The notes below the pieces were generated by a model. It saw only the letters and a program-made list of their open reading frames with translations. It was not told the DNA's origin and did not search any database. Below are positions 3,566 through 54,044 of a stretch of 64,000 nt of DNA, piece by piece (within the stretch, counting starts at the first letter, position 1; every line of letters begins with the position of its first letter). The position numbers and the translations under genes were made by a program. The DNA comes from Chthoniobacterales bacterium (GTDB lineage Bacteria > Verrucomicrobiota > Verrucomicrobiia > Chthoniobacterales > DASVRZ01), in NCBI GenBank assembly GCA_039930045.1, contig JBDSQB010000010.1:18264-82263 (forward strand), written 5' to 3'.

Positions 3566-3600
3566 CTAAACAGAGGGCCGCCCTTTTGCGTAGAAAAAAC

Positions 3601-4539
3601 CTACCACTTCCGGGCCAGCACGCCGTCGTTTTCCGTGTCCTTGCGAAACGCCTCATCGAGCTTCGCGACCGAGGAAAAATCTCCGAAATACGTCGCAGCC
3701 AGCGCGCTGTCGTTCGTCGCGCCGGTCGCCAGCAGACCGAAAAATTTCAGAAACTTGTCGTCATCCTTGCCCACCAGAAACCGCACCAGCGCGTCGGACT
3801 CGCCATAAAACGTCTCCACCTCGTGCGCGTCTGTCGGGTAACTTTGCAGATTCATCAGGCGCTCCAATGGGATGTAACTCGCCCGTGGCACGAGCGCGCC
3901 GCCCGGTTTGCTGGCGTAACCGCGAGCCCGGTAATACGCGGCGTAGGCCTTGCGCGAGACGTTTTCCGCGTAGCCCTCGTTTAGCCAGAGCGGGATCTGA
4001 CCCGGAAAAAACCGGCTCACCACCAGATGCGCGATCTCATGCCCCAGTGTGCGACCCTTCCAGCGCGCCTTGCCATCGCGGAAAACAAACAATTCGCTGC
4101 CCGTCTGCAATCCGCCGGTCCAGGGATCGAGCCCGCCGGATTTCTGAAACTCCGCCCATTCCGCCTCGTTCTCGAAGATGAAAATGTGGGCCTTGCGCTG
4201 CCAGGTCGCGCTCTCTTTTTTCAAGTCGGCGGCGATCACCCGGTAATAAAACTCCGCCTCGACCGACGCCTCGGTCGCGGCCACCGCGCTGCGAAAGTGG
4301 TAGATGAAATTCGCCGTCTCCGCGTGCTGCCAGGCGGGCGGATTGATCGTCAGGGCGCGGACTCCGAGGTTGGAAAAATATTTGTTGCTCAAGTCGCCCC
4401 AAGCCTTCGTGGCGATGCCATCGAGCCCGCGTTTCTCCGGCGTTCCCGGCTTCGGAAGTTGCGCCGGGGCGAGGCCGGACCAGAGGAGCAAGGCCAGACT
4501 GGCGAGGTGAATCGACTTGAAGTGAAATGGAAAACGCAT
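3601..4539 (-). CDS. secreted putative zinc metallopeptidase (HExxH, peptidase MA-like/DUF1570-like)
   Basis: Internal Met followed by signal peptide MRFPFHFKSIHLASLALLLWSGLAPAQ. HEIAHL motif. The upstream part of the 376-aa track ORF is Arg/Pro-rich junk. Confidence 0.55.
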   Translation of the reverse strand: MRFPFHFKSIHLASLALLLWSGLAPAQLPKPGTPEKRGLDGIATKAWGDLSNKYFSNLGVRALTINPPAWQHAETANFIYHFRSAVAATEASVEAEFYYRVIAADLKKESATWQRKAHIFIFENEAEWAEFQKSGGLDPWTGGLQTGSELFVFRDGKARWKGRTLGHEIAHLVVSRFFPGQIPLWLNEGYAENVSRKAYAAYYRARGYASKPGGALVPRASYIPLERLMNLQSYPTDAHEVETFYGESDALVRFLVGKDDDKFLKFFGLLATGATNDSALAATYFGDFSSVAKLDEAFRKDTENDGVLARKW

Positions 4540-24825: not shown

Positions 24826-25689
24826 CTAACGAAATTCAGCGGAAATGATTTTCCCGATCTCTGCGATCACGGCGTCTTTTTCATCGCCGCTGGCTTGGGA
24901 GCCGGAGGAATAGGCGGCGATCACAAGGGGTTTCCGACCCGGAATCCAGACGATGGCAATGTCATTGGAAGCCCCATTTTCGCCGGAACCCGTCTTGTCA
25001 CCCACTTTCCAAGTCGGATTGAGCCCGGCACGCAACTTCTTGGCTCCAGTCTGGCAACCCACCATCCAATCGGTGAGATGCTGGCGGGATTGGGCGGAAA
25101 GAATGTCACTGGTAAGCAGTTTCGCCAGCGTCTGCGCCATGGCGACCGGAGTAGTGGTGTCGCGCTCGTCGTCGGGCAGATTCGTGTTGAGCGTCGGCTC
25201 GTTGCGATCCAGCCGCGTCGCTTGGTCACCAATCGAGCGCAGATATTTCGTCAGTCCCGCCGGGCCGTCGATCGTGGCGAGGAGCAGATTGGCCGCCGTG
25301 TTATCGCTCCACTCGACTGCTGCCTGGCAAAGATCGGCCACCGACATTTCGCCTTTCGCGATGTGTTTGCCCGTCACAGGCGCGTAGGAAAGAAGGTCGG
25401 AAGAACCGTAAGTGATCTTCCGCGACAGATTCTCCTGACCCGCATCGACCCTGGCCAGCACCGCAGCCACAAGCACCACTTTGAACGTGCTGGCCATGGC
25501 AAAACGCTCATCACCTCGATGGCTAAAAACTTGGCCCGTTTCCGTATCCAGCACCGCCACTCCGAGCCGGCTCGCGCTCTTTTCTTCGAGTTCGATCAGA
25601 CTCTGTTCAAAGCGCTTCTCATCCGCCGCTGGCAACGACAGACAGCTCGATAAGAGAAGAAATAGGAAGGTCAAAAGCCGCATGATCAT
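24826..25689 (-). CDS. bla: class A beta-lactamase
   Basis: STFK (ASTFKV), SDN (EWSDNTAAN), E...N and KTG (DKTGSG) motifs. Signal peptide MIMRLLTFLFLLLSSCLSLPAA. Confidence 0.88.
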   Translation of the reverse strand: MIMRLLTFLFLLLSSCLSLPAADEKRFEQSLIELEEKSASRLGVAVLDTETGQVFSHRGDERFAMASTFKVVLVAAVLARVDAGQENLSRKITYGSSDLLSYAPVTGKHIAKGEMSVADLCQAAVEWSDNTAANLLLATIDGPAGLTKYLRSIGDQATRLDRNEPTLNTNLPDDERDTTTPVAMAQTLAKLLTSDILSAQSRQHLTDWMVGCQTGAKKLRAGLNPTWKVGDKTGSGENGASNDIAIVWIPGRKPLVIAAYSSGSQASGDEKDAVIAEIGKIISAEFR

Positions 25690-25718
25690 AGGATGACTGT
25701 AGCTCATCCTATGAATGC

Positions 25719-32992: not shown

Positions 32993-33235
32993 GGGATTAT
33001 TTTTTTAGAAAGCCGCAGTTGGTTAGTTAGAGGAGTCGGAAGGTGAGGCTGCCGCGAGAATGAGCCTGCTGCGGCGAATGTCGAGCCAAGCCGCGATTCT
33101 TCGCCCGCCCTCAAGACAACCCGCCCAAGGAGAAACAAGGCGACGTGTCCACTTGGGATCAACCCGAATCCGGCGCTCGCCCGGGCAGCCGTTAAGCACT
33201 CAAGCGCCGCCGACGGTGATGGAGAACAAAAACCA

Positions 33236-33784
33236 TCACGGGGCAACGAAGGCAGGGAGGCCGTCGATGCTCTGACGATTCTTGAGTTCTCGATAAGTAT
33301 CGAGCCCGTCCGGGCCTTTGTTGAGAGCCCAGCGGTCCAGCGTGTCGCGTTGACCTTGGAACTCATAGAGCGGCCCGCTGTAGCCGCAGGAATCCGACAC
33401 CCGCGACACCGCTACATGCACAATCGCCCGCGTACCGGGATTCTCTGGAAAGAGCGCCGCCAACTCTTCAAACCGTGCATCGCCCCGCGCGATCACCGAG
33501 CCGCGCCCGTGCAAACGCACAATCTGCGGTGGTCCATCGAAGGCACAAAACATCACTACGATGCGCCCGTTCTCGCGCAGATGCGCCGCCGTCTCAGCGC
33601 CACTGCCCGTGTAGTCCAGATAAGCCACCTCCAGCGGCCCGAGCACCCGGAAAGTATCGCCGCCCTTGGGTGAGACATTGATGTGGCCGTCAGGAGAAAG
33701 TGGTGCCGTGGCGACAAAGAAAACGCGCTGCCTGGCCATCCAGTCAGCGAGTTCGGTATTAATCTGCGCGTGTTGCTTGCTCAT
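33236..33784 (-). CDS. pyridoxamine 5'-phosphate oxidase-like FMN-binding protein
   Basis: VFFVATAPLSPDGHINVSPKGG split-barrel motif. Confidence 0.7.
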   Translation of the reverse strand: MSKQHAQINTELADWMARQRVFFVATAPLSPDGHINVSPKGGDTFRVLGPLEVAYLDYTGSGAETAAHLRENGRIVVMFCAFDGPPQIVRLHGRGSVIARGDARFEELAALFPENPGTRAIVHVAVSRVSDSCGYSGPLYEFQGQRDTLDRWALNKGPDGLDTYRELKNRQSIDGLPAFVAP

Positions 33785-33814
33785 GGTAGGTGAAATGTAT
33801 GGCAAACTATCGCA

Positions 33815-34207
33815 TCATGGACGGTTTTTCGGAAGCACTCGCTTCCTCGTTTCCAAACTGTCAATAGAGCTGACTCCCTCGTTCCCAAACTGAAGTTTGG
33901 GAACGAGTTGATTCATTAACCACTCGCGCCCTTCCAGCTTCACCTGTTCGAGAAGTACTAACGACGTGTGCCGTTTGATAGCCGTAATCGTCCTCTCCAA
34001 CTCCGGTCCTCCTAATATCGCGTGAAAGTGCGTATCGAGGACGACCCATGCGTAAATCTTCAACCCCCGTTGCTCGCGACAATGCACCAGCGAGCTAACC
34101 AAAATATCCGCACAAGCACTTGTCGCGAAAACCGGGAGCCAATTTACAATCGTGCCCGTGATGAAATGGGCGCGCTCTGGGTCGTTAATGTGATAACGCG
34201 TGCGCAT
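33815..34207 (-). pseudogene. REP-associated tyrosine transposase (RayT / IS200-like HuH Y1 transposase), apparently C-terminally truncated
   Basis: IYAWVVLDTHFHAIL closely matches the RayT HuH block (E. coli YafM INAWVVLPEHMHCIW). There is no Tyr anywhere after residue 52, so the catalytic Y block is missing. The frame runs into a REP-like palindrome. Confidence 0.6.
33876..33907. repeat. REP-like palindromic element, copy L (13-bp stem, tgaa loop)
   Basis: ccctcgttcccaaacTGAAgtttgggaacgag. Confidence 0.8.
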
Positions 34208-34266
34208 AATGTTAGTAAGAGAAGGTTAGCAGGGCAACACAGTTGCCGTGACAAGCCCGTTCCCAA

Positions 34267-34299
34267 ACTTCAGTTTGGGAACGAGGGGCACGAGGGACC
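34267..34299. repeat. REP-like palindromic element, copy R, inverted relative to copy L (30/30 identity to its reverse complement)
   Basis: cccgttcccaaacTTCAgtttgggaacgagggg. The loop orientation is flipped relative to copy L. Confidence 0.8.
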
Positions 34300-34354
34300 C
34301 AGCCACCGCTGGTTCCTAACACACCGGCAGAATAAAGCAGTTGGCCTTTCTTCC

Positions 34355-35056
34355 CTACGGTGCCACCGGAGGAGTGGGATTCTCCTCAGCATCGTCTTCC
34401 GCGTGGCCGCCGCCTAGATCGACGATCAGGCGGGCACTCGTGTAGGCGTTAAAGAACTCCGGGTTCTTCCGCTTAAACTTTCGCATCGCCTTGTCGATCT
34501 GCTTCTTGAGTAACGTCATTGCGCTCGCTGTATCGAGCCCGATGTCGCCCGTCACCCCTTTGCCAGCCACGATCGCCTGTCGAGGAGCCGTCGCCAGGGG
34601 GAGGTAAACCGTGATCGCCGCATCCAGTTCGGCCAGGTCCTCCGCCGTCGTGCCCAGCAGATCGATGTCCGCCGCACGGGCCAGACAGAGATCATAGAGC
34701 GTGCGGCAATACGGGCCCACCAAGGCGTCATCCATGCGGAGCAACGTCGTTAGCTCCACATCCGTCTTTGCGGCCAGCTCATCATCCTGCGCCGTCACCG
34801 CCACCGTGTGGAGATCGCCCACCGCCGACACGGTCAACTCCGCCATCTCGATCTGCTTGCGGCTTTTGCCACCGGCGATGCCCGTCTGCGGTGTCCCTTG
34901 CACGCCACTCGCATCCTGAATCGACTTCACGAGAGCGCCGAGTTGCGTCACCAGCGCGGCAAACGCCGTCAGCGACACCCATTGGGCGTTGTATTTCTGC
35001 ATGATGCCGAGCACGGCGAGAAACATGCTGAGTTTGTTTTTCTGTGGATTTGTCAT
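34355..35056 (-). CDS. hypothetical protein (orphan, no recognisable motifs)
   Basis: 233-aa ORF with coding-like composition, lying between the REP/RayT element and the 21-bp repeat array. Confidence 0.5.
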   Translation of the reverse strand: MTNPQKNKLSMFLAVLGIMQKYNAQWVSLTAFAALVTQLGALVKSIQDASGVQGTPQTGIAGGKSRKQIEMAELTVSAVGDLHTVAVTAQDDELAAKTDVELTTLLRMDDALVGPYCRTLYDLCLARAADIDLLGTTAEDLAELDAAITVYLPLATAPRQAIVAGKGVTGDIGLDTASAMTLLKKQIDKAMRKFKRKNPEFFNAYTSARLIVDLGGGHAEDDAEENPTPPVAP

Positions 35057-35585: not shown

Positions 35586-38500
35586 ATGAAAATACTTATC
35601 CTCCATATCAGTGACATCCACCTACGAGAAGAGCATCAGAATCCGAGCATTCCTAAATTTGGGTTTATTGCCCCGGCTTTGCAGAATGAGGAACATGACC
35701 TTACCCATGTAGTAGTTGCCATTTCTGGTGACGTAGCCTATGCGGGAAAGAAATCGGAATATGAGCTCGCTAAAAAGTGCTTAGATTCTTTGACAGCAGG
35801 CCTTCAGGAGCGTCTCAAAGTAGAAAAGGTTCGTTACGTGCTTATTCCCGGAAATCACGATTGTGATTTTTCCGGCAACAACAGAATGCGGATGTTGGCC
35901 ATTGAAGCTGTCAGAAATGGAGAAGCCCCTGACGATGAAATGATCGATTCTTGCTGTAAGCCGCAAGCCGAATTCGTAAAATTTCGGGACAGCCACCCAA
36001 ATGCCAAGCCAGATCACCAAAGCAGCCCTCTTCACTGGCAGTATCGAATAGAGGATGTCTCTTCAAGCATTGAGTTTCGTTGCTTCAACACAGCCTGGAT
36101 GTCCGTCCTGCACGAGACACAAGGAACACTACATGTTCCCGATTTGGTAGCCGACCATGAGGATTCGAGCAACGGGAGCGATTACGTGGTCTCGCTTTTT
36201 CACCACCCGTATAACTGGATGCCATCAGCAACTTTTCGTCGTTTCAAAACATTAGTGGAGGAGTCTTCGGATCTGGTTCTTACTGGCCACGAGCACGAAG
36301 CTGATCATTTTCAGAAATACTCATTCAAGAGTCAGGAAGTGAATGACTACCTCGAGGGTGCCGTATTCCAAGAGAATGATCGCGACGACCGAGCTGGATT
36401 CCACGCCGTATTTGTGGATTTAATTGCCCAGAGACAGAGGACCGTAAGTTTTACTTGGGAAGAACAAAGGTTTGCCCCTGAGTCTATCGAAGTGTCATGG
36501 GTCCCTTACAAGCGCGGAAGCCGAGGCGGCAAAAGAGAGTTTGATCTTAGTGAGGAGTTTGCAAAATCGCTTGAAGATCCTGGCGCAAGTTATCAACACC
36601 CCGCAAAACCAGACCTGCGACTTGCCGATATCTATGTATTTCCCAATTTGAAGCAGTTTGAGATCAGCAAGAAGACCGATTTTGTTTATGGATCTCTCAT
36701 TGAAGGCCGAGACGTTCTCAAGACACTCGGTTCGAAACGGAAGGTTTTGCTGTTCGGAAGACAGCAATCAGGCAAGACGACGCTTGCAAAGGTGCTTTTT
36801 ACCGACCTCTACAACAAGAATCTAACTCCGGTGCTCATCTCAGGAGACGATCTTACCAAAGCGCACCTAAACAGTGAGAAGTTAGATACATTAGTTGAGA
36901 CTCAATTCGCGAAACAGTACCGAAATCCAAATCTTCCGGCTTTCGATCAAGTTGATAAAGATAAGGCTATTTTGATCGTCGATGATTTTGACCATGGCGC
37001 ACTAAACTCAGCGGGGCGTCTCAAGCTTTTGGAAGTAGCAACGAAGCGTTACGATCGCTTGGTTGTCTTTGCTGACGATATAATCAAGCTAGAAGAACTC
37101 GCTGTTTATAAGGAAGGAAGTGATGTGCTAACAGATTTCGAACAATTCGAAATAGTTCAATTCGGCCATCTTCTCAGGAGCAAACTCATCACTCAGTGGT
37201 ACTCAATCGGAAGTGAATACGATGCGGATCCCATAGAGTTAGGGAAGCGTATCCATATTGCCGAACAGATGGTTTCAACAATGCTCGGGAAGAATTATCT
37301 TCCGCACTTTCCGGTTTTCATTCTCACCTTAATTCAAGCAAGCGATTCGGCAGCGCATCCTAACACTAGTGCGGGAACATACGGTAGTCTTTACGAGATT
37401 ATTATCACACAGGCGCTAGCTTCGAAATCATCAAATGTCGATCTCGACACTAAAATGACTTATCTGAGCGAAATTGCGCATTGGATGCATGCGGCCCAAA
37501 AGAAGAGAATTACAGATGATGAGTGGGAATACTTTCACCGGATATACTGCAAAAAATTCAAGATTCATCCATCAAAGGAATCAATAAAGAGGGATTTTGC
37601 AACTAACGGCTTATTTGATCTTAGAGACGAGCGTTACGGATTTCGGCATCCGGCTTCATACTACTATTTCGTAGCACGCTATTTCCGAGATAACTTATCG
37701 AAGGATTCAGCTCGAACGGCAGTAGCTGGTTTGTTGAGCAAGCTTTACAAAGAAGAGCACGCAAGCATCTGGCTGTTTCTCACACATTTATCGAAGGATC
37801 CGTTTCTGCTAGAAACAATTCTAGAGCATGCAAAGCGGATTTACTCTGAGTTTCCCTCAGCCCGTTTTGAAGAAGATGTTTCATTTCTTCAGGCCCTTGC
37901 AGACAGCGTTGAAAAGATTGTCTTAAAAGACAAATCTTTAGGGGAATCTAAAGAGGAGAGACTTAGGACACTTGATGCACTTCCTGCCTTACCTGACACG
38001 AGCGATGATTTCGACGGAGGTGAGGATGAGACAAATGAGACTCTTAAGCTAATTGCCAAGATGAACCTTGCCCTTCGAACTTTAGAAGTGCTCGGGCAAT
38101 TGGTGAAAAATTTCCCCGGTTCACTTCAAGGTGATGACAAGCTCGCATTGGTTCAGGAATGTTATGCGCTTGGTCTGCGTACAATTTCAATGTTGTTTGG
38201 TCTCTTCCAAAGTGATGTAGAGGCTTTTGTTGATTGCGTTTATGAGCGATTGATCGAGAAACATAGCGAAATTGATGACCGTGACGAACTAAAGAGCAAA
38301 GTTCGAAAGTTTATGTTTTGGATGATTGAAAGCGCGAGTTTTGGCATGATTAAGCGCATTGCTCAGGCGGTGGGCCATTCTCAACTCGGGGAAATCTACA
38401 GAGAAGTGAGGGAACAGGACGAAAGCAATGCAACTGCACTCATCGACATTGCTATCCACTTAGAGAACTTAGGTTTCCCTGAGGACAGATTGAAAGAACT

Positions 38501-38783
38501 GGCGCAAAAGTTTCTTCCGCAAATTAGCTCGCCGATGCAGCGCCCCGCGAGTAATTCTAAATACCCCGTTGCTGTTCCTCGGCGTAGCAAGAATCTATTT
38601 TGTGAACAGATATTGAAGCAACTGGTAGTGGAACACTTTTACCTTTTCCCAACTCGGGAATCGACCAAACAAAAGATTTGCGCGGCTCTCCAGATTGAGG
38701 TTCAAAAGATCCGGCATCTCGATGTAAAGGCCGAGAATGAGAGGCGTGCTCCTCAATCTTCTCTCCCGGATGAGAATCAATAA
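35586..38783 (+). CDS. calcineurin-like metallophosphoesterase fused to P-loop NTPase (AAA+/STAND-like) with large helical C-terminal region; candidate defence/stress protein
   Basis: MPP motifs D10xH12 (HISDIHL), GD48 (SGDVAY), GNHD89-92, HH207-208, GHEH235-238. Walker A FGRQQSGKTT (392-400), Walker B AILIVDDFD (462-470). ~590-aa alpha-helical C-terminus. GC ~45% versus ~62% in the flanks. Confidence 0.85.
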   Translation: MKILILHISDIHLREEHQNPSIPKFGFIAPALQNEEHDLTHVVVAISGDVAYAGKKSEYELAKKCLDSLTAGLQERLKVEKVRYVLIPGNHDCDFSGNNRMRMLAIEAVRNGEAPDDEMIDSCCKPQAEFVKFRDSHPNAKPDHQSSPLHWQYRIEDVSSSIEFRCFNTAWMSVLHETQGTLHVPDLVADHEDSSNGSDYVVSLFHHPYNWMPSATFRRFKTLVEESSDLVLTGHEHEADHFQKYSFKSQEVNDYLEGAVFQENDRDDRAGFHAVFVDLIAQRQRTVSFTWEEQRFAPESIEVSWVPYKRGSRGGKREFDLSEEFAKSLEDPGASYQHPAKPDLRLADIYVFPNLKQFEISKKTDFVYGSLIEGRDVLKTLGSKRKVLLFGRQQSGKTTLAKVLFTDLYNKNLTPVLISGDDLTKAHLNSEKLDTLVETQFAKQYRNPNLPAFDQVDKDKAILIVDDFDHGALNSAGRLKLLEVATKRYDRLVVFADDIIKLEELAVYKEGSDVLTDFEQFEIVQFGHLLRSKLITQWYSIGSEYDADPIELGKRIHIAEQMVSTMLGKNYLPHFPVFILTLIQASDSAAHPNTSAGTYGSLYEIIITQALASKSSNVDLDTKMTYLSEIAHWMHAAQKKRITDDEWEYFHRIYCKKFKIHPSKESIKRDFATNGLFDLRDERYGFRHPASYYYFVARYFRDNLSKDSARTAVAGLLSKLYKEEHASIWLFLTHLSKDPFLLETILEHAKRIYSEFPSARFEEDVSFLQALADSVEKIVLKDKSLGESKEERLRTLDALPALPDTSDDFDGGEDETNETLKLIAKMNLALRTLEVLGQLVKNFPGSLQGDDKLALVQECYALGLRTISMLFGLFQSDVEAFVDCVYERLIEKHSEIDDRDELKSKVRKFMFWMIESASFGMIKRIAQAVGHSQLGEIYREVREQDESNATALIDIAIHLENLGFPEDRLKELAQKFLPQISSPMQRPASNSKYPVAVPRRSKNLFCEQILKQLVVEHFYLFPTRESTKQKICAALQIEVQKIRHLDVKAENERRAPQSSLPDENQ

Positions 38784-43179: not shown

Positions 43180-43394
43180 GAAATGGTTAGTAGAAAGTTT
43201 TTTGGGATTGCCGGTTGACGCGTCCCCGATCCTTGCTAAGTCTTACAACGTCATTCCAATGAAACTCGCCGTCCATTCCAAACCAACCTGCCTCGCCGCT
43301 GCCTATCGCGCTGCGAAGATGGTCGTCCGTATTTGGAATACTAACATGGGCCGTGGAGCTTTCTGATTTAAATCTAACCAAACATTTTTCCAGA

Positions 43395-43428
43395 AAACCC
43401 ACTGCCCGAAAAGCAGTGGGTTTTTTGT
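43395..43428 (+). terminator. rho-independent terminator
   Basis: aaacccactgc-ccgaaaa-gcagtgggttt followed by ttttttg. Confidence 0.75.
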
Positions 43429-48243: not shown

Positions 48244-51200
48244 ATGAAATCCTCCTCCCCAAATTCATTCCCAGCCCTCGCCCTCGCTGTTACTGCGGCC
48301 CTCGCCCTCGGTCACTCTGCGCAGGCGGCGAATACTGCCGATACCTACACCGGCAGCGTGACGGGCAACGTGACCACTGGTTCGAACTGGAGTCTCGGCA
48401 CTGCGCCCCTCGTAACCAACGATGCTGTTTTTAACAACGGCACGGGCATCCGCAATTTCGGCACTGGCGCTTCACCGGCCAACCTCACCGTGGGTTCCTT
48501 CAACGTCACGCCGAACAGCGGCACCTATACGCTTCGCAATGATACGAGCGGCGCGACAAACGTGACTTTGACACTCGGCGGCGCTGGTAATCTCGGCAAC
48601 GGCATTTCCAGCACCTTTGGGACTGGATCTTCGTCGGATCTGATCTTTGCGGCATACGGGTCCACATTCAACCTGACCGGCACCAACGGCGGGGGCGGCA
48701 CAGGTGTGTTGGGTATTGCGTTGGCCGAATCGGGCAACTTCAATATCGCCGGGACCTCTGCGATTTCGTCCATCATCACCGGAGCATTTGGCCTCACGAA
48801 AACCGGTGCGGGCACGTTGACGCTTTCCGCGACGAACACCTTCTCGGGCGGGCTTAACATCTCATCCGGCACGGTTGATATCGGCACGAACAACGCGGTT
48901 CTCGGCGGAACTTCCGGCACTGCAGGTGCGGTGACGCTCAATGGCGGCGCTTTGCAGATTACGCAGTCCCAGACAGACACCCACGTGATTACGGTCGGCT
49001 CTAATGGAGGTGTGCTGAGAATCCTGGCAGCGGGTAACGTGCAGACATACAATCTGGGAGTTGCGGGCGACCTGACTGGCTCCGGCACGTTAACTGTCAC
49101 CGGCGATCGCGGTATCGGCATCAACGTTGGCGGCAACGCCTCGAAATACAACAGCGTTCTCGTGATGGGCAATGCGAACAGCGGCTACACCGGGAACATG
49201 GTTTTTCAAAGCGGCGGCACCGCGGAGATTACCAATGCCGGCGCAGTGGGAACCGGCGGCACCTTTACGTTAAACGATCAGGGCCAGATTTCTCTGGGCG
49301 TCAGTCTGGCGAAAGACATCACGGTGAATAACGGCGGTATTCTCGGCTTCAACGTAAACAACGTTACTTACTCTGGAGCGATCACATTAAATGGAGCTGC
49401 CAATGCTCGTTTGCAGTATTGGTATACCAACACGGCTGCAACCGGCGAGACGATCGGTGCGATGTCCGGCAGTGGAAGCTTGTCGGTGACTTCCGGCAAC
49501 ACTTCGGGCGGAACTCTGGCTCTCAACGGCACAAATACGTTCACCGGCGGCCTCACGGTCGCGGCATCGACGGTGTCCATCACGGGCAACTCGACCGGGA
49601 TGACAGGCCCCATTAACATCAATTCGGCTTCCCTTTACAATGGGGTCGGAGCCGGGACTTTGACCCTGAACGGCAACACTGGTTCCCTCTCCTCGACTGC
49701 GACGGTCAATATCAATGGCGGCACGTTCAATTATCAAGGCGCTACTGCGGGGAGCACTCTCGACGCGACCGCCTACACCTTTGGCGGTGGCGATCGCAAC
49801 TACCAGTCCACCTATGGCACCAGCGGCAACACCAGCCTGAGCCTCGCCAATTCGACGCGCACGGCTGGCACGACCAATAACTATTCGACGAGCGGCGGGA
49901 CGAACGGCACGACCAACAAGATTACCTTCACGTCCGCTCCTGGAACGGGAGCTTTGATCGACAAGGGCGACTACTTCGGCGGCACCAGCTATGCCGCTTA
50001 TGACGCTACTAATAGCGCCGTCCGCGCCTACGGCAGCGGTGATACGAATTATTCTGCCCAGGCGGCAAGTTCAACCGGATTTGTCGGGACTACTGCTGCG
50101 AGCAACGTGGATGTGACCGGAGCTATCACCAACCAGACCACGACTCAGATCAATACCCTCCGCCTCGGCACCACGAATGCCGTCACCATGACGGCCGCCA
50201 ATACGCTCACCGTGGATGGCATCCTCAAATCGGGCGGCAATGCAGCAACCATCACCGGCGGCAGTGGCATCCAAGCTTCGAGCGGCGGTGAAATGGTGAT
50301 TCGCACAAACGCTTCGGGTGACACTCTGACGATCAGCACGGTGATTCTGGACAACAGCACGAGCTCGCTCACCAAGTCCGGTCTCGGAACACTGAACCTG
50401 AACTCCGTGAACACTTACGCTGGCGGCACGACACTTAATGCGGGCGTGATCGTCTTGGGCAACAACAGTGGGCTCGGCACCGGCACGCTCACGATGAACG
50501 GTGGTGTGCTTCAGATGAATGCCAAGACGATCTCGAACAATATTGCCGTTGGGGCGAACGCCTCCGCGATGATTGATAACACGGGCAACAACTCAACGCT
50601 GAATGGAAATATCAGCGGCTCTGGAACCCTGACCATCGGGAACTCCAGCGGCAACAACCTGTCGGCTTTCCTCGGCGGTTCGAACTACAGCGGATTCACC
50701 GGCACGCTGAATTACTTCACGAGCGGTAATGTTGTGAACATCTTCGCCCCCGGCTCGACCTTAGATCTTTCCAACGCGGCAGTTAACTTCCTCAATCCGG
50801 GGAATGTCACGAATTCTGCCTTCAAGACCAATGGGAGTTTCGCCACGAAATTCGGTTCGCTGAGTGGCTATGGTTATATTGAAGACAACGGCACGGTTGA
50901 AATCGGCAATCTGAACACCAACACGAACTTCTGGGGAATTATCTCACTCGCGGGCGGCGTCACGAAAGTCGGCACCGGCACGCTGACCCTCAGCGGCGCG
51001 AATAGCTACTCGGGTGGCACGACGGTCAAGAACGGCACACTGGTGCTCGGCTATGGCGGCAGTCTTTCGGCAAGCACTACGTTGACCATCGGTGATTCCG
51101 CGACGAACACCAATGGCACCTTCCAGCTCGGCGACAGTCTGAACGCGGTCAACACCACGGTGACCAGTCTCGCGACCGCCGGCACGGGCACGTCCAACGC

Positions 51201-53589
51201 AATCGTAGGCGGCAACGTGAACGTCTCTACCTTGAACGTGAATAACGGCGGCGCTGTCACCTACGGCGGCAAACTCGGCGGCGCGGGCACCAACCAGAAC
51301 AACCTGGCGCTACTGAAGACGAACAGCGGCCAGCTCACGCTTTCCGGCAGCAATACCTATAGCGGCGGAACGACGGTCAACGCGGGAACTCTGTCAGCGG
51401 CCAACAACAATGCATTGGGCAGCGGTGCACTGAATCTGAATGGCGCCACATTGAACAACGCGGGGGCGGGCAGCGACATCACGCTGACGAACAACATCGC
51501 GCTCACTGGAGCGAACAGCATCCAGCCAGGCACTAACAAGAACCTGACGATCAGCGGCGGTATCTCCGGCAGCGGTTCGCTGACGATGGGCAACGATAGC
51601 AACAACGTTTCTATCTTTTTTGGCGGCACCAACAGCATGACCAGCGGCACCATTACCCTGGCCAACAATACCAACGCGGTTCGCATCTCCAGCACCAACG
51701 CGGGCAATGCCAATGTTGCGTGGGTCTTCAATAACACAGGCGTCAATAGAGACACGCTGGATTTCGGCACGGGGACCATCTCCTTCGGTTCGATGACTGG
51801 CGCTGGCATTCTTCAGAACAACACGGCGGGCGGCGTGACTCAAACGATCTCAGCCGGTGCCTTGGGAACCACTGATACATTCAGCGGTGCGATCAAAGAT
51901 TCGAGCACGGGGAACGGCAGCGGCACGATCGCATTCACCAAAGTCGGCACCGGCACGATGAGCCTTACTGGCGCGAACACCTACGCTGGTGGCACGACGG
52001 TTAAGAACGGCACGCTGGTGCTAGGAACAGGCGGCAGCCTTTCCACCAGCAACACGCTGACGCTGGGTGATTCCTCAACAAACGCCAACGGCATCTTCCA
52101 GTTGGGCAATGGCGGTGGAGCGGTCAATACCACCGTCACCAGCCTCGCGAAGGCAGGCACCGGAACGTTGAATGCCGTGGTCGGTGGCGACGCGGCAGTC
52201 TCGACGCTGACGGTCAACAACGGCGGCGCGGTCAGCTACAGCGGCAAACTCGGCGGCGCAGGCACCAACCAAAACAACCTTGCGCTCACCAAGACTGGCG
52301 CGGGAACGTTGACGCTCTCCAGCAGCAACACCTACACCGGCGGCACTACGGTCACTACGGGCATCGTTAACTTCGGCAACGCCTCGGCATTTGGCACAGG
52401 ATCGATCACGCTCAATGGCGGCACGATCCAGGCTGGAGGAGGCTTTACCCTCGCCAATAACATTGTGGTCTCCGCCAGCTCGGTGATCGACATGGTTGGC
52501 AACAATACTGCGTTCAACGGCAACCTCAGCGGTTCGTCGGCGGTGAGCTTTACCGACAGCGGCCTCGCTTCCACAGCTACCTTAAGCGGAAACAACAGCG
52601 GCTTCAGTGGAACATTCACCATGAGCGGCAACGGCAATGGTAACGCGGTCGATTTCACCTCAGCCAACGCGGGCAGCGCCAGTGCGGCATGGGTATTCAA
52701 TGATGCCGCTGTTGATCGCGTGCGAATCAAGATCGCCGGCGGCGGCACCATCAACTTCGGATCGCTGGCGGGAAGCGGGCAGATGCAAAACGATACGTCC
52801 GCAACGACATCGACAATCAGCGTGGGTGCCCTCGGCACTAGTACGACGTTTAGCGGCACGATGAAAGACAACGGCACGGGCATAATTGCTCTCACGAAGG
52901 TAGGTTCTGGCATGCTGACGCTCACCGGAGCAAATGCCTACACCGGCACCACTACGGTGAGCGGCGGCACATTGAACGCGGCAGCCGCGAATGCGTTGCA
53001 ATCGACCTCAGCAATTACAGTAAGCACCGGGGGCACATTGCTCATCAGCAACAATGCCAGCACCAATCACGTAAACAATTCGGCTACCATCAACCTCAAT
53101 GGCGGCACCCTTGCCATTGATCCTGCTCAGGAGGGTGTGGCTGCCACGAAGACTGGCGGCACTGTCACCGGAACCAGCACTGTGGGACTCGGGGCGCTGA
53201 CCCTGAGCGCAAATTCGACGCTCGACTTCGACAGCGCCAGCAATGGCAACCTGCTGGTCTTCGCCACCGGGTTCACGGACGCGGGCAACGCGTTCAAGTT
53301 GAACATCACCAACTGGACCAATGCGAACTTCAACGGCACGACGAACTCGGGCCAGAGCACCGACGACCGGCTGGTCTTCAACCAAGACATGTCTTCATTC
53401 ATTACGGCTGGCGACATCACGTTTGACGGATCGGCAGTCGGCGTGACCCAGATCCAATTGGACAGTGGCTTCTACGAAATCGGTGTCGCGCCTGTTCCCG
53501 AGCCTTCCACTTGGGTGGGTGCTGGTCTGATCACCGGACTGGCGGGCTGGAGCCAGCGCCGCCGACTGGCGAATGCCAAGCTCTCGTAA
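48244..53589 (+). CDS. PEP-CTERM-anchored giant exoprotein with autotransporter-associated beta-strand (PATR) repeats
   Basis: Signal peptide. Dozens of GTGTLTLSGANTYSGGTTV-type repeats. C-terminal VPEPSTWVGAGLITGLAGWSQRRRL PEP-CTERM sorting signal. Confidence 0.85.
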   Translation: MKSSSPNSFPALALAVTAALALGHSAQAANTADTYTGSVTGNVTTGSNWSLGTAPLVTNDAVFNNGTGIRNFGTGASPANLTVGSFNVTPNSGTYTLRNDTSGATNVTLTLGGAGNLGNGISSTFGTGSSSDLIFAAYGSTFNLTGTNGGGGTGVLGIALAESGNFNIAGTSAISSIITGAFGLTKTGAGTLTLSATNTFSGGLNISSGTVDIGTNNAVLGGTSGTAGAVTLNGGALQITQSQTDTHVITVGSNGGVLRILAAGNVQTYNLGVAGDLTGSGTLTVTGDRGIGINVGGNASKYNSVLVMGNANSGYTGNMVFQSGGTAEITNAGAVGTGGTFTLNDQGQISLGVSLAKDITVNNGGILGFNVNNVTYSGAITLNGAANARLQYWYTNTAATGETIGAMSGSGSLSVTSGNTSGGTLALNGTNTFTGGLTVAASTVSITGNSTGMTGPININSASLYNGVGAGTLTLNGNTGSLSSTATVNINGGTFNYQGATAGSTLDATAYTFGGGDRNYQSTYGTSGNTSLSLANSTRTAGTTNNYSTSGGTNGTTNKITFTSAPGTGALIDKGDYFGGTSYAAYDATNSAVRAYGSGDTNYSAQAASSTGFVGTTAASNVDVTGAITNQTTTQINTLRLGTTNAVTMTAANTLTVDGILKSGGNAATITGGSGIQASSGGEMVIRTNASGDTLTISTVILDNSTSSLTKSGLGTLNLNSVNTYAGGTTLNAGVIVLGNNSGLGTGTLTMNGGVLQMNAKTISNNIAVGANASAMIDNTGNNSTLNGNISGSGTLTIGNSSGNNLSAFLGGSNYSGFTGTLNYFTSGNVVNIFAPGSTLDLSNAAVNFLNPGNVTNSAFKTNGSFATKFGSLSGYGYIEDNGTVEIGNLNTNTNFWGIISLAGGVTKVGTGTLTLSGANSYSGGTTVKNGTLVLGYGGSLSASTTLTIGDSATNTNGTFQLGDSLNAVNTTVTSLATAGTGTSNAIVGGNVNVSTLNVNNGGAVTYGGKLGGAGTNQNNLALLKTNSGQLTLSGSNTYSGGTTVNAGTLSAANNNALGSGALNLNGATLNNAGAGSDITLTNNIALTGANSIQPGTNKNLTISGGISGSGSLTMGNDSNNVSIFFGGTNSMTSGTITLANNTNAVRISSTNAGNANVAWVFNNTGVNRDTLDFGTGTISFGSMTGAGILQNNTAGGVTQTISAGALGTTDTFSGAIKDSSTGNGSGTIAFTKVGTGTMSLTGANTYAGGTTVKNGTLVLGTGGSLSTSNTLTLGDSSTNANGIFQLGNGGGAVNTTVTSLAKAGTGTLNAVVGGDAAVSTLTVNNGGAVSYSGKLGGAGTNQNNLALTKTGAGTLTLSSSNTYTGGTTVTTGIVNFGNASAFGTGSITLNGGTIQAGGGFTLANNIVVSASSVIDMVGNNTAFNGNLSGSSAVSFTDSGLASTATLSGNNSGFSGTFTMSGNGNGNAVDFTSANAGSASAAWVFNDAAVDRVRIKIAGGGTINFGSLAGSGQMQNDTSATTSTISVGALGTSTTFSGTMKDNGTGIIALTKVGSGMLTLTGANAYTGTTTVSGGTLNAAAANALQSTSAITVSTGGTLLISNNASTNHVNNSATINLNGGTLAIDPAQEGVAATKTGGTVTGTSTVGLGALTLSANSTLDFDSASNGNLLVFATGFTDAGNAFKLNITNWTNANFNGTTNSGQSTDDRLVFNQDMSSFITAGDITFDGSAVGVTQIQLDSGFYEIGVAPVPEPSTWVGAGLITGLAGWSQRRRLANAKLS

Positions 53590-54044
53590 TTAGCCAAGTG
53601 TCCCGCAGCGACGGGATCTACTGGTTGCTGTCTACCGCCTCGCCTTTGCGACAAATGTAATGAGACACGCTGGCACTGGCAATGCGATGAACGCATTCAG
53701 GGCCAGCACGCGCGTCTCGGGCGAGTACGGCATTCTCGAAACGAAGACTTACGACGGTCACGTCTCGAACCAATGTGCGGAGAACGCCTCGTCTGAGGTG
53801 AGAGTGGGGCTGGCTGCCGTCGACCAGCGTCGGCTATTGCGGGCAGTTTGGTGCCAAAAACCCATTTGTCGAAGAACTCACGGCCTCGTTCGGCGTGTGA
53901 AATGGCACCGCTGCGCAAAAAATCTGAAGTCATAAGCAGTTTGTGGTTGTGTTCTCGTTGAGAAAATTCAGATCATTCCCGCGTTCAGCAACCCCCCAAA
54001 GAAATCACGGCTAGAGTTTGCCGTCATTTCGCCCCACCTGCCCT

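Follow-up and report, generated by a model that had tools for sequence, protein, structure and literature searches.

A RayT gene truncated at a hairpin in a Chthoniobacterales genome: probable remnant of a REPtron-like unit

Results

The window gene and its full-length relatives

The window analysed here is the whole 64-kb stretch of DNA from a Chthoniobacterales metagenome-assembled genome (MAG; Verrucomicrobiota). Its segment 33842-34297 is, in our reading, a degraded unit of the transposase gene rayT (tnpAREP) and its repetitive extragenic palindromic (REP) hairpins, REPtron-like or "TIRtron"-like in layout, in which the gene has become a 3'-deleted pseudogene (probability roughly 0.85). 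The gene is homologous to full-length RayT genes over its first 101 codons, lacks the segment that encodes the tyrosine motif of its relatives and reads directly into the hairpin at its 3' side (A'), the inverted counterpart of a hairpin at its 5' side (A). In related loci such hairpins, each paired with a smaller inner hairpin (B or B'), flank intact RayT genes. Coordinates are collected in Table 1.

The predicted product of the window gene matched the NCBIfam model NF047646 ("REP-associated tyrosine transposase") over profile positions 4-88 of 146 (E = 8.8e-13), scoring 48.4 bits and thus remaining under the curated 80-bit cut-off, which its relatives P0003, P0006 and P0014 pass with 96-110 bits. 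Pfam gave no match for the 130-aa protein. The RayT-type HUH block (YAWVVLDTHFHAIL) occupies residues 52-65, and H60-F61-H62 aligns with H59-M60-H61 of PDB entry 4ER8, indicating that the HUH metal-binding motif is present. The protein forms a cluster of one and is recorded in two collections (NCBI and Logan).

The similarity between the window protein and its database relatives (176-180 aa) extends to residue 101 (...REWLMNQL) and ends there; a tblastn search of the window with P0003 likewise returned residues 1-102 only (81% identity). Past residue 101 the relatives continue with a conserved QVWQEG, which the window protein lacks, and then with QKLxY[IL]HNNPVKRG, the tyrosine motif Y[IL]H[NEH]NP lying at about residue 138. 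The WQ of the relatives corresponds to W94/Q95 in the guide-recognition region of Escherichia coli TnpAREP (PMC6006769). An earlier reading made from the letters of the window alone (hereafter the sequence-only reading) had proposed that the frame enters the left palindrome, that no tyrosine occurs after residue 52 and that the Y1 block is lost. All of this proved correct, with homology ending at residue 101 and the Y-x-x-x-NP motif deleted rather than mutated.

The structure 4ER8 is that of E. coli TnpAREP bound to a REP hairpin, with Y115 as the catalytic tyrosine and N119 as a metal ligand (Messing et al., PMC3479197). The profile of the window's family matched it in two stretches, placing the HUH motif on H59/H61 and Y-x-H-N-N-P on Y115...N119, and the window protein has only the first of these. 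Aligning the RayT families thus located the expected tyrosine motif on Tyr115 of TnpAREP, in a part that the window has lost. For the fold comparison, full-length relative P0003 stood in for the window fragment. Its AlphaFold2 model (predicted local distance difference test score of 75) had 4er8_A as its best match (E = 6e-7, TM 0.60/0.64), followed by the ISDra2 and IS608 transposases, and Y138 sits in a helix spanning residues 129-145. Judged from this alignment, the window product retains the HUH half (strands of the N-terminus, metal ligands of the HUH motif, helix C) but has lost the WQ strand, the tail at the C-terminus and helix D, which carries both the Tyr nucleophile and an Asn that binds metal.

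Hairpins in the window and in related loci

The palindrome is 26 nt long (CGTTCCCAAAC-N4-GTTTGGGAACG, loop TGAA) and is present in two inverted copies. Its core CGTTCCCAAACTGAAGTTTGGGAACG occurs exactly twice in the window, at 33880-33905 on the + strand and as the reverse complement at 34258-34283, and the copies are identical to each other over these 26 nt (chance expectation: 0 in 100 shuffles). Together with the NF047646 match, the two exact copies bear out the earlier proposal that inverted palindromes bracket a RayT-type HUH gene. The 30-mer described in that proposal maps to 33876-33905 and 34258-34287, so that its left coordinates stand and its right ones (34267-34299) were about 10 nt too high.

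On the + strand the loop reads TGAA in the left copy and TTCA in the right one, and by loop and outer flank the two hairpins (33878-33907 and 34258-34283) are inverted, which gives the REPtron layout seen in related loci. Both the orientation of A' and its outer flank (gaggga) agree with the 3' hairpins of related units L001 and L005, and a conserved CT-C foot precedes hairpin A on the gene strand (+ strand 34283-34285). Folded as single-stranded DNA, the left hairpin reached -16.9 kcal/mol (z = -8.0 relative to shuffled controls) and the right hairpin with the adjacent small hairpin -18.4 kcal/mol (z = -5.7). The 5' hairpin lies 50 nt from the ATG, compared with a median of 39 nt in related loci.

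A metagenome scan for relatives yielded 80 related loci. Open reading frames (ORFs) of 170-185 aa were found in 68 of them, all but one with the tyrosine motif (67/68). In intact units the gene is bracketed by inverted repeats of about 60 bp, with hairpin A on the outside and the smaller hairpin B on the inside of each. Where enough flank was available (62 loci), perfect A-type hairpins were present on both sides in 44 loci, only upstream in 11, only downstream in 7 and on neither side in none, the median spacing between hairpin and gene being 39 nt on the ATG side and 33 nt on the stop-codon side. Hairpin B is found at both ends of units L001, L003 and L005 and usually lies 6-12 nt inward of A (e.g. 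L005 109-170, L066 7199-7260 and window 34222-34296). With hairpins detected sequence by sequence, stems of at least 5 bp beside hairpin A were on its inner side in 90 of 136 hairpin instances, as against 12 of 136 on the other side; RNAalifold applied to the two-hairpin module recovered hairpin A only, variable loop length putting B out of register. The centre of B (AAAC-TCCR-GTTT) resembles the inner part of A.

The stems vary by lineage with both arms altered together (CGTTCCCAAAC, CGTTCCCAAGC, CGTTCCCAAGT, CGTTCCCAGGC, CGTTCCCAGAC, CGTTACAAGGC and CGTGCCCAAAC), and their variant endings include ..AAGC, ..AAGT, ..AGGC and ..AGAC. The base pair closing the stem of A covaries (CG 39, GC 12, UA 9), and the stem of B changes with pairing kept (gaagc/gcttc, gaaac/gtttc, ggcaa/ttgcc, caagc/gcttg). 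The foot reads yyCT-N followed by GTTCCC, with CT occupying -3,-2 at 318 of 631 hairpin sides, one side per hairpin, and with C3 and T4 each at least 90% conserved in the hairpin alignment. Because E. coli TnpAREP requires a site cut between C and T (PMC3333891), the conserved CT probably marks the cleavage site.

Just outside 33 of the 312 hairpin sides in related loci we observed "stuttered" copies of the foot together with the first part of the stem, arranged in tandem (for example CCCCTCGT four times and cccctcgttcccaagtt three times). Such sites occur in the window at 34288-34297 and 33842-33860, in L003 at 2900-2935 and 3600-3714, in L129 at about 2870-2937, and in L166 and L153. They might have arisen either by slippage at the hairpin foot or by repeated cleavage and rejoining. 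The half copy at 33842-33860, a stutter with a period of 32 bp outside the unit, is the only extra piece of the palindrome in the 64 kb.

It is extremely unlikely that the palindromes serve neighbouring genes as generic terminators or regulatory hairpins and lie near a gene fragment by coincidence. The unit does stand between two co-oriented minus-strand genes (34355-35056 and 33236-33784), and its hairpins are stable. However, neither hairpin has a T-run, and no terminator-like site was found in 33600-34500 on either strand, nor was a promoter-like one. The same hairpins stand beside RayT in 62 of 62 related loci with enough flank, their arms change together from one RayT lineage to the next, and both window copies are oriented as unit ends by loop and outer flank. 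As hairpins placed at fixed distances from intact RayT genes, the palindromes are part of the element itself and not terminators, the alternative that the sequence-only reading had named as a refutation of its proposal. Rfam covariance models gave only chance-level matches in 33000-35000 (E at least 0.36, far under gathering scores) and no family.

The deletion and its junction

Aligned at the DNA level with units L001, L003 and L005, the window, starting at its upstream hairpin, remains collinear as far as AATCAACTC (codon 101), and hairpin A' comes immediately next. Relative to L003 and L005, the missing segment amounts to about 270 bp and comprises codons 102-177, the stop codon and hairpin B'. 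No C-terminal RayT remnant was found in any frame of the window by tblastn with full-length queries and with C-terminal ones at permissive settings, indicating a deletion and not a frameshift. This also answers the earlier suggestion that a frameshifted continuation might exist downstream; none was found, and the reading of a lost tyrosine half stands. Window residues beyond 102 had no match in any of the 80 related loci, and blastp of the 29-residue tail found no match among the C-termini of the relatives. Two weak matches to the C-terminal segment (49104-49217 and 53526-53618) are noise within an unrelated 1781-aa repeat protein. A MAFFT pairing of the tail with the C-terminus of the relatives (Q106/E110/G111/K122/N129/P130) was rejected as an artefact, given that blastp detects no similarity and that the DNA at this place is the hairpin.

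Table 1. Features of the truncated RayT unit in the window
Feature	Position	Strand	Remarks
ORF	33815-34207	(-)	130 aa; NCBI MEO7933103.1, annotated "hypothetical protein", Chthoniobacterales MAG (Verrucomicrobiota)
RayT (tnpAREP) codons 1-101, homologous part	33905-34207	(-)	includes HUH H60-F61-H62
Non-homologous 29-codon tail and stop	33815-33904	(-)	read-through of hairpin and flank
Deletion junction	33903-33908		Leu codon 101 (CTC) joined to inner foot of 3' hairpin
3' REP hairpin A'	33878-33907	(-)	perfect 13-bp stem; inverted relative to 5' copy; now within the reading frame
5' REP hairpin A	34258-34283	(-)	11-bp stem; loop TGAA on gene strand
Inner small hairpin B, 5' module	34233-34247	(-)	ggcaac-aca-gttgcc on + strand; predicted in DNA fold
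Half copy of hairpin outer arm and foot	33842-33860	(-)	19 nt, 17/19 identical to 33874-33892
Partial duplicate of outer foot (CCCTCGT)	34288-34297	(-)	just outside 5' hairpin; minus strand tCCCTCGTgcCCCTCGTtccc

These observations suggest the following course of events. In relatives, the intact unit consists of a CT-tagged outer hairpin A (CGTTCCC...GGGAACG) with the small hairpin B after it, a 177-codon tnpAREP gene carrying the HUH and Y-x-H-N-N-P motifs, and an inverted pair of hairpins, B' and A'. From such a unit about 270 bp (codons 102-177, the stop codon and B') would have been deleted in the window, joining Leu codon 101 to the foot of A', so that the frame now crosses the hairpin and stops 29 codons on, giving the 130-aa product. 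Because the WQ strand, helix D with its Tyr nucleophile and Asn ligand, and the tail are lost, the truncated product would be unable to cleave or rejoin single-stranded DNA, and the unit would be inert.

The junction is ambiguous by 1-3 nt, as CTC can be counted either as codon 101 (CTC in L003) or as part of the stem. This Leu codon now lengthens the left stem to 13 bp, and one end of the deletion lies 1-3 nt from the stem base. No repeated k-mer linking codon 101 to the hairpin was found. In the E. coli excision model two cleavage sites between C and T are joined (PMC3333891), and we considered a RayT-made deletion of this kind; the ancestral sites deduced from L001, L003, L005 and the 5' module of the window fail to give the junction on either strand. 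Recombination between an intragenic REP insertion and the 3' REP was also considered. The foot of the left hairpin is symmetric (ctc...gag), like solo copies elsewhere, and an earlier intragenic insertion is therefore possible, but an intragenic hairpin was found in 0 of 80 related loci and this route is unsupported. With low confidence, we suggest that the deletion was illegitimate, possibly stimulated by the hairpin, and ended at the stem base.

We also considered a sequencing or assembly artefact (a frameshift or a collapsed repeat) that hides an intact gene; the source is a MAG, and palindromes can disturb assembly. Nevertheless, about 270 bp are absent and not shifted, with no C-terminal coding remnant in any frame; no repeated k-mer lies between codon 101 and the hairpin that could collapse; and the same product is recorded from two collections. 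We regard such an artefact as highly improbable.

Decay or a conserved short form

The sequence-only reading had left two options, a decaying unit or an unusual short RayT. In the second, an HUH-only protein that binds the hairpins (e.g. as a regulator or protector of REP DNA or RNA) would be kept by selection. Several points weigh against decay, and some of them favour such a protein. The homologous 101 codons contain no internal stop and no frameshift, and the 130-aa ORF is open. The ratio of nonsynonymous to synonymous substitution rates (dN/dS) over codons 1-101 is 0.04-0.09 relative to the nearest relatives, with saturated dS, and only 2 amino-acid substitutions in this part are specific to the window; a low dN/dS fits a very recent deletion and continued selection on the fragment alike. 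Both hairpins are intact, their 26-nt cores still being identical. The genome is seen for 64 kb only, and its remainder may contain dispersed copies of the REP or an intact paralogue that acts in trans. Mis-assembly is unlikely, but the NCBI and Logan records may share the same reads. Finally, any mechanism of the deletion is tentative; ambiguous homology at the junction (CTC/CTCG) extends over 2-4 nt at the most.

The comparison with relatives nevertheless favours decay. A gene ending at the hairpin was found in 0 of 80 related loci and in 0 of 26 database relatives, in keeping with the cluster of one formed by the window protein, so that the architecture is unique and a conserved short RayT becomes unlikely. 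Frameshift mutants that retain both halves account for 5 of the 80 loci, and the other short forms among the relatives are explained by frameshifts, by nonsense mutations or by the end of a contig. The fragment has neither QVWQEG, whose WQ corresponds to the guide-recognition residues, nor helix D, and its last 29 residues are read-through of non-coding DNA. Since dS is saturated, the low dN/dS is mainly a record of the time that preceded the deletion. Taken together, these results make a functional short RayT very unlikely and leave decay as the option that stands. The sequence comparison suggests that the gene was under purifying selection for most of its history and that the deletion is recent or, less likely, that the fragment is still useful.

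Decayed units of other kinds were seen as well. In one Chthoniobacterales MAG (L088, 2400-2540), 22 RayT codons are left after the A-B module; in another (L022, 4215-4270), only the A-B module is present. A Thermoguttaceae unit (L101, 5224-5748) has an in-frame stop, and in L001 (2395-2400) a change of TGG to TGA turns a Trp near the C-terminus into a stop.

Comparison with known elements

The REPtron of E. coli with its RayT, reportedly described by Nunvar in 2010, resembles the window's family in that the protein is of the HUH/Y1 type, in that intact relatives carry both the HUH and the Y-x-x-x-N-P blocks and in that the gene lies between inverted palindromes. The CT beside the hairpin foot is a further likeness, the C-T site being needed by TnpAREP (Ton-Hoang 2012, PMC3333891). 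Unlike those of E. coli, the stems of this family are perfect (11-13 bp), with no mismatch or bulge, the GT[AG]G guide tetranucleotide found 5' at the foot of canonical REPs is absent, and the ends are two-hairpin modules at fixed distances. Sequence identity to E. coli TnpAREP is only about 18%, and the window copy lacks the Tyr half.

The motifs of the relatives ([DN][TN]HFH, WQ and Y[IL]HNNP) and their length of 177 aa fit either of two TnpA-Y1 subclasses, 2.4 (NH[IFV]H / WQ / YIxNNP) and 2.6 (NH[LIV]H / WQ / YIH[QN]NP, median 179 aa; Quentin et al. 2018, PMC6006769), which are RAYT groups 4 and 5 of Bertels et al. (2017, PMC5581495). Hairpins of subclass 2.6 are described as "atypical" and lack GTAG (PMC6006769). 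In subclass 2.4, REPs can insert in frame between HUH and Y, whereas in the window the hairpin replaces the Y half. The window hairpin is not in the supplementary REP table of PMC6006769, and Verrucomicrobia are not mentioned in that paper.

The family also resembles the TIRtrons of Di Nocera et al. (2013, PMC3733652), in which a Tyr-transposase gene (TIRYT) is enclosed by long inverted repeats at the termini, including "double palindromic" ones. The two differ in that the GGGGWSAS repeat motif of TIRYT is absent from the window's family and in that most TIRYTs belong to subclass 2.1 with a C-terminal helix-turn-helix extension, which this family lacks. The end modules of the family occur without a gene as inverted doublets in other genomes, as in REPINs (Bertels and Rainey 2011); unlike REPINs, the window contains no such doublet and the copy numbers seen are low.

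No further full copy of the palindrome was found in the 64-kb window, even at 3 mismatches or with a half-site scan. The sequence-only reading had reported this absence, which stands, and had called it atypical, which should be softened. Published numbers of flanking-repeat copies per replicon are 12-14 for RAYT groups 1 and 4 (14 for group 4; Bertels et al., PMC5581495), repeats of TIRtrons have few or no further genome copies, and REPtrons are listed in species without REP families (PMC3733652). Given these low copy numbers and REPtrons without REP families, the lack of another copy in 64 kb is not anomalous.

We also considered whether the RayT family might be an autonomous insertion sequence (IS) of the IS200/IS605 type with hairpin ends, the window then holding a dead IS copy. 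Partial or decayed copies are common among IS200/IS605 elements, and these share with the present family the Y1 HUH transposase fold and subterminal hairpins. In addition, hairpin-gene distances are nearly fixed in very diverged loci, units occupy differing genomic neighbourhoods, pseudogenes are frequent, and Verrucomicrobiota, Planctomycetota and Cloacimonadota share one architecture, which suggests that entire units have been transferred horizontally. However, the ends of intact units are mutual inverted repeats over about 60 bp and hence symmetric, whereas IS200/IS605 ends are asymmetric (PMC3333891), and the tyrosine motif is Y-x-x-x-NP (class 2, TnpAREP) and not Y-x-x-x-Q (PMC6006769). 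The IS200 model NF033573 gave the best-scoring relative 16 bits against a cut-off of 55 bits, whereas the REP-transposase model is passed; TnpAREP is the best structural match, and no tnpB-like gene is adjacent. Moreover, 116 of 120 hairpin-bearing 8-kb blocks among the matches listed have no RayT nearby, and gene-less doublets exist, which points to dispersal of the REP/REPIN kind. Therefore, it is unlikely, on balance, that the family is an insertion sequence of this type.

The hairpin stem across phyla

The exact 20-nt stem GTTCCCAAAC-N4-GTTTGGGAAC was present in at least 120 8-kb blocks (L006-L125) from at least 80 genomes, each representing a species, that together span more than 10 phyla. 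These include Planctomycetota (with anammox genera), Verrucomicrobiota, methanotrophic and sulfur-oxidising Gammaproteobacteria, Deltaproteobacteria and Ignavibacteria, as well as Cloacimonadota, Chloroflexota, Calditrichaceae, KSB1, Armatimonadota, Gemmatimonadota and Bacteroidetes. Cultured isolates of Methylomonas and Methylocaldum and one Cloacimonetes single-cell genome are among the carriers. Most genomes have 1-3 stem-bearing blocks among the matches listed, and multiple copies were found in one Deltaproteobacteria MAG (at least 13 blocks) and one Chloroflexota MAG (at least 6). A RayT gene was found in 4 of the 120 hairpin-bearing blocks among the matches listed, about 40% identical and with the same architecture. 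Inverted doublets (A-B...B'-A') that enclose no gene, with a spacing of about 85-105 bp, were seen in L027, L031, L036, L070 and L108. A literature search with the stem sequence returned unrelated primer matches only, and no paper describing the hairpin was found.

It is conceivable, though we put it forward only tentatively and think it somewhat doubtful, that the relic belongs to an undescribed RayT/REP lineage. Such a lineage might be distinguished by a CT-N foot on a near-invariant CGTTCCC stem, the lack of GTAG, two-hairpin ends, and a stem conserved at the nucleotide level across at least 80 genomes of more than 10 phyla while RayT diverged to about 40% identity.

Neighbouring genes and other hairpins in the window

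Directly upstream of the unit lies a 233-aa ORF (34355-35056, minus strand) for which Pfam gave no match. The minus strand also carries the relic and a PNPOx-family gene (33236-33784), and the hairpins of the relic may therefore lie within a transcript shared with its neighbours. At 35586-38783 (plus strand), 1.3 kb from the relic, is a gene for a 1065-aa protein with an N-terminal calcineurin-like metallophosphoesterase domain followed by weak matches to novel STAND NTPases (nSTAND_NTPase4 just over its Pfam cut-off, nSTAND3 and AAA_14 under theirs), an architecture reminiscent of anti-phage defence proteins. The 1781-aa repeat protein mentioned above (48244-53589, plus strand) is rich in Gly, Thr and Asn, and its C-terminus (VPEPSTW...hydrophobic...RRR) resembles a PEP-CTERM sorting signal.

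The only other perfect hairpins with stems of at least 9 bp in the window, at 43394-43424 and 25686-25714, are unrelated to the REP hairpin. The first (AAAACCCACTGC-CCGAAAA-GCAGTGGGTTTT) has A and T runs at its sides and is bidirectional-terminator-like; the second is an 11-bp palindrome (TCATAGGATGA...TCATCCTATGA).

Discussion

If the window gene is read as we propose, its annotation changes from "hypothetical protein" to a 3'-deleted tnpAREP pseudogene, and the window provides one clean case of a RayT unit killed by deletion up to a REP hairpin's foot. The gene stub left between its two hairpin repeats is an unremarkable result of decay in an element of known kind. The window itself therefore matters little, and the family behind the relic is more useful. 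Across hundreds of loci its layout is well defined (hairpin and gene 39 nt apart on the 5' side and 33 nt apart on the 3' side), and the CT next to the stem is at the place expected for cutting by E. coli TnpAREP. The family could serve the study of RayT-hairpin co-evolution and of the movement of units between phyla. REPs are usually described as species-specific. The lineage tentatively suggested above, if real, would contradict this view and would imply either repeated transfer of the whole unit across phyla or an unusually rigid code of protein-DNA recognition.

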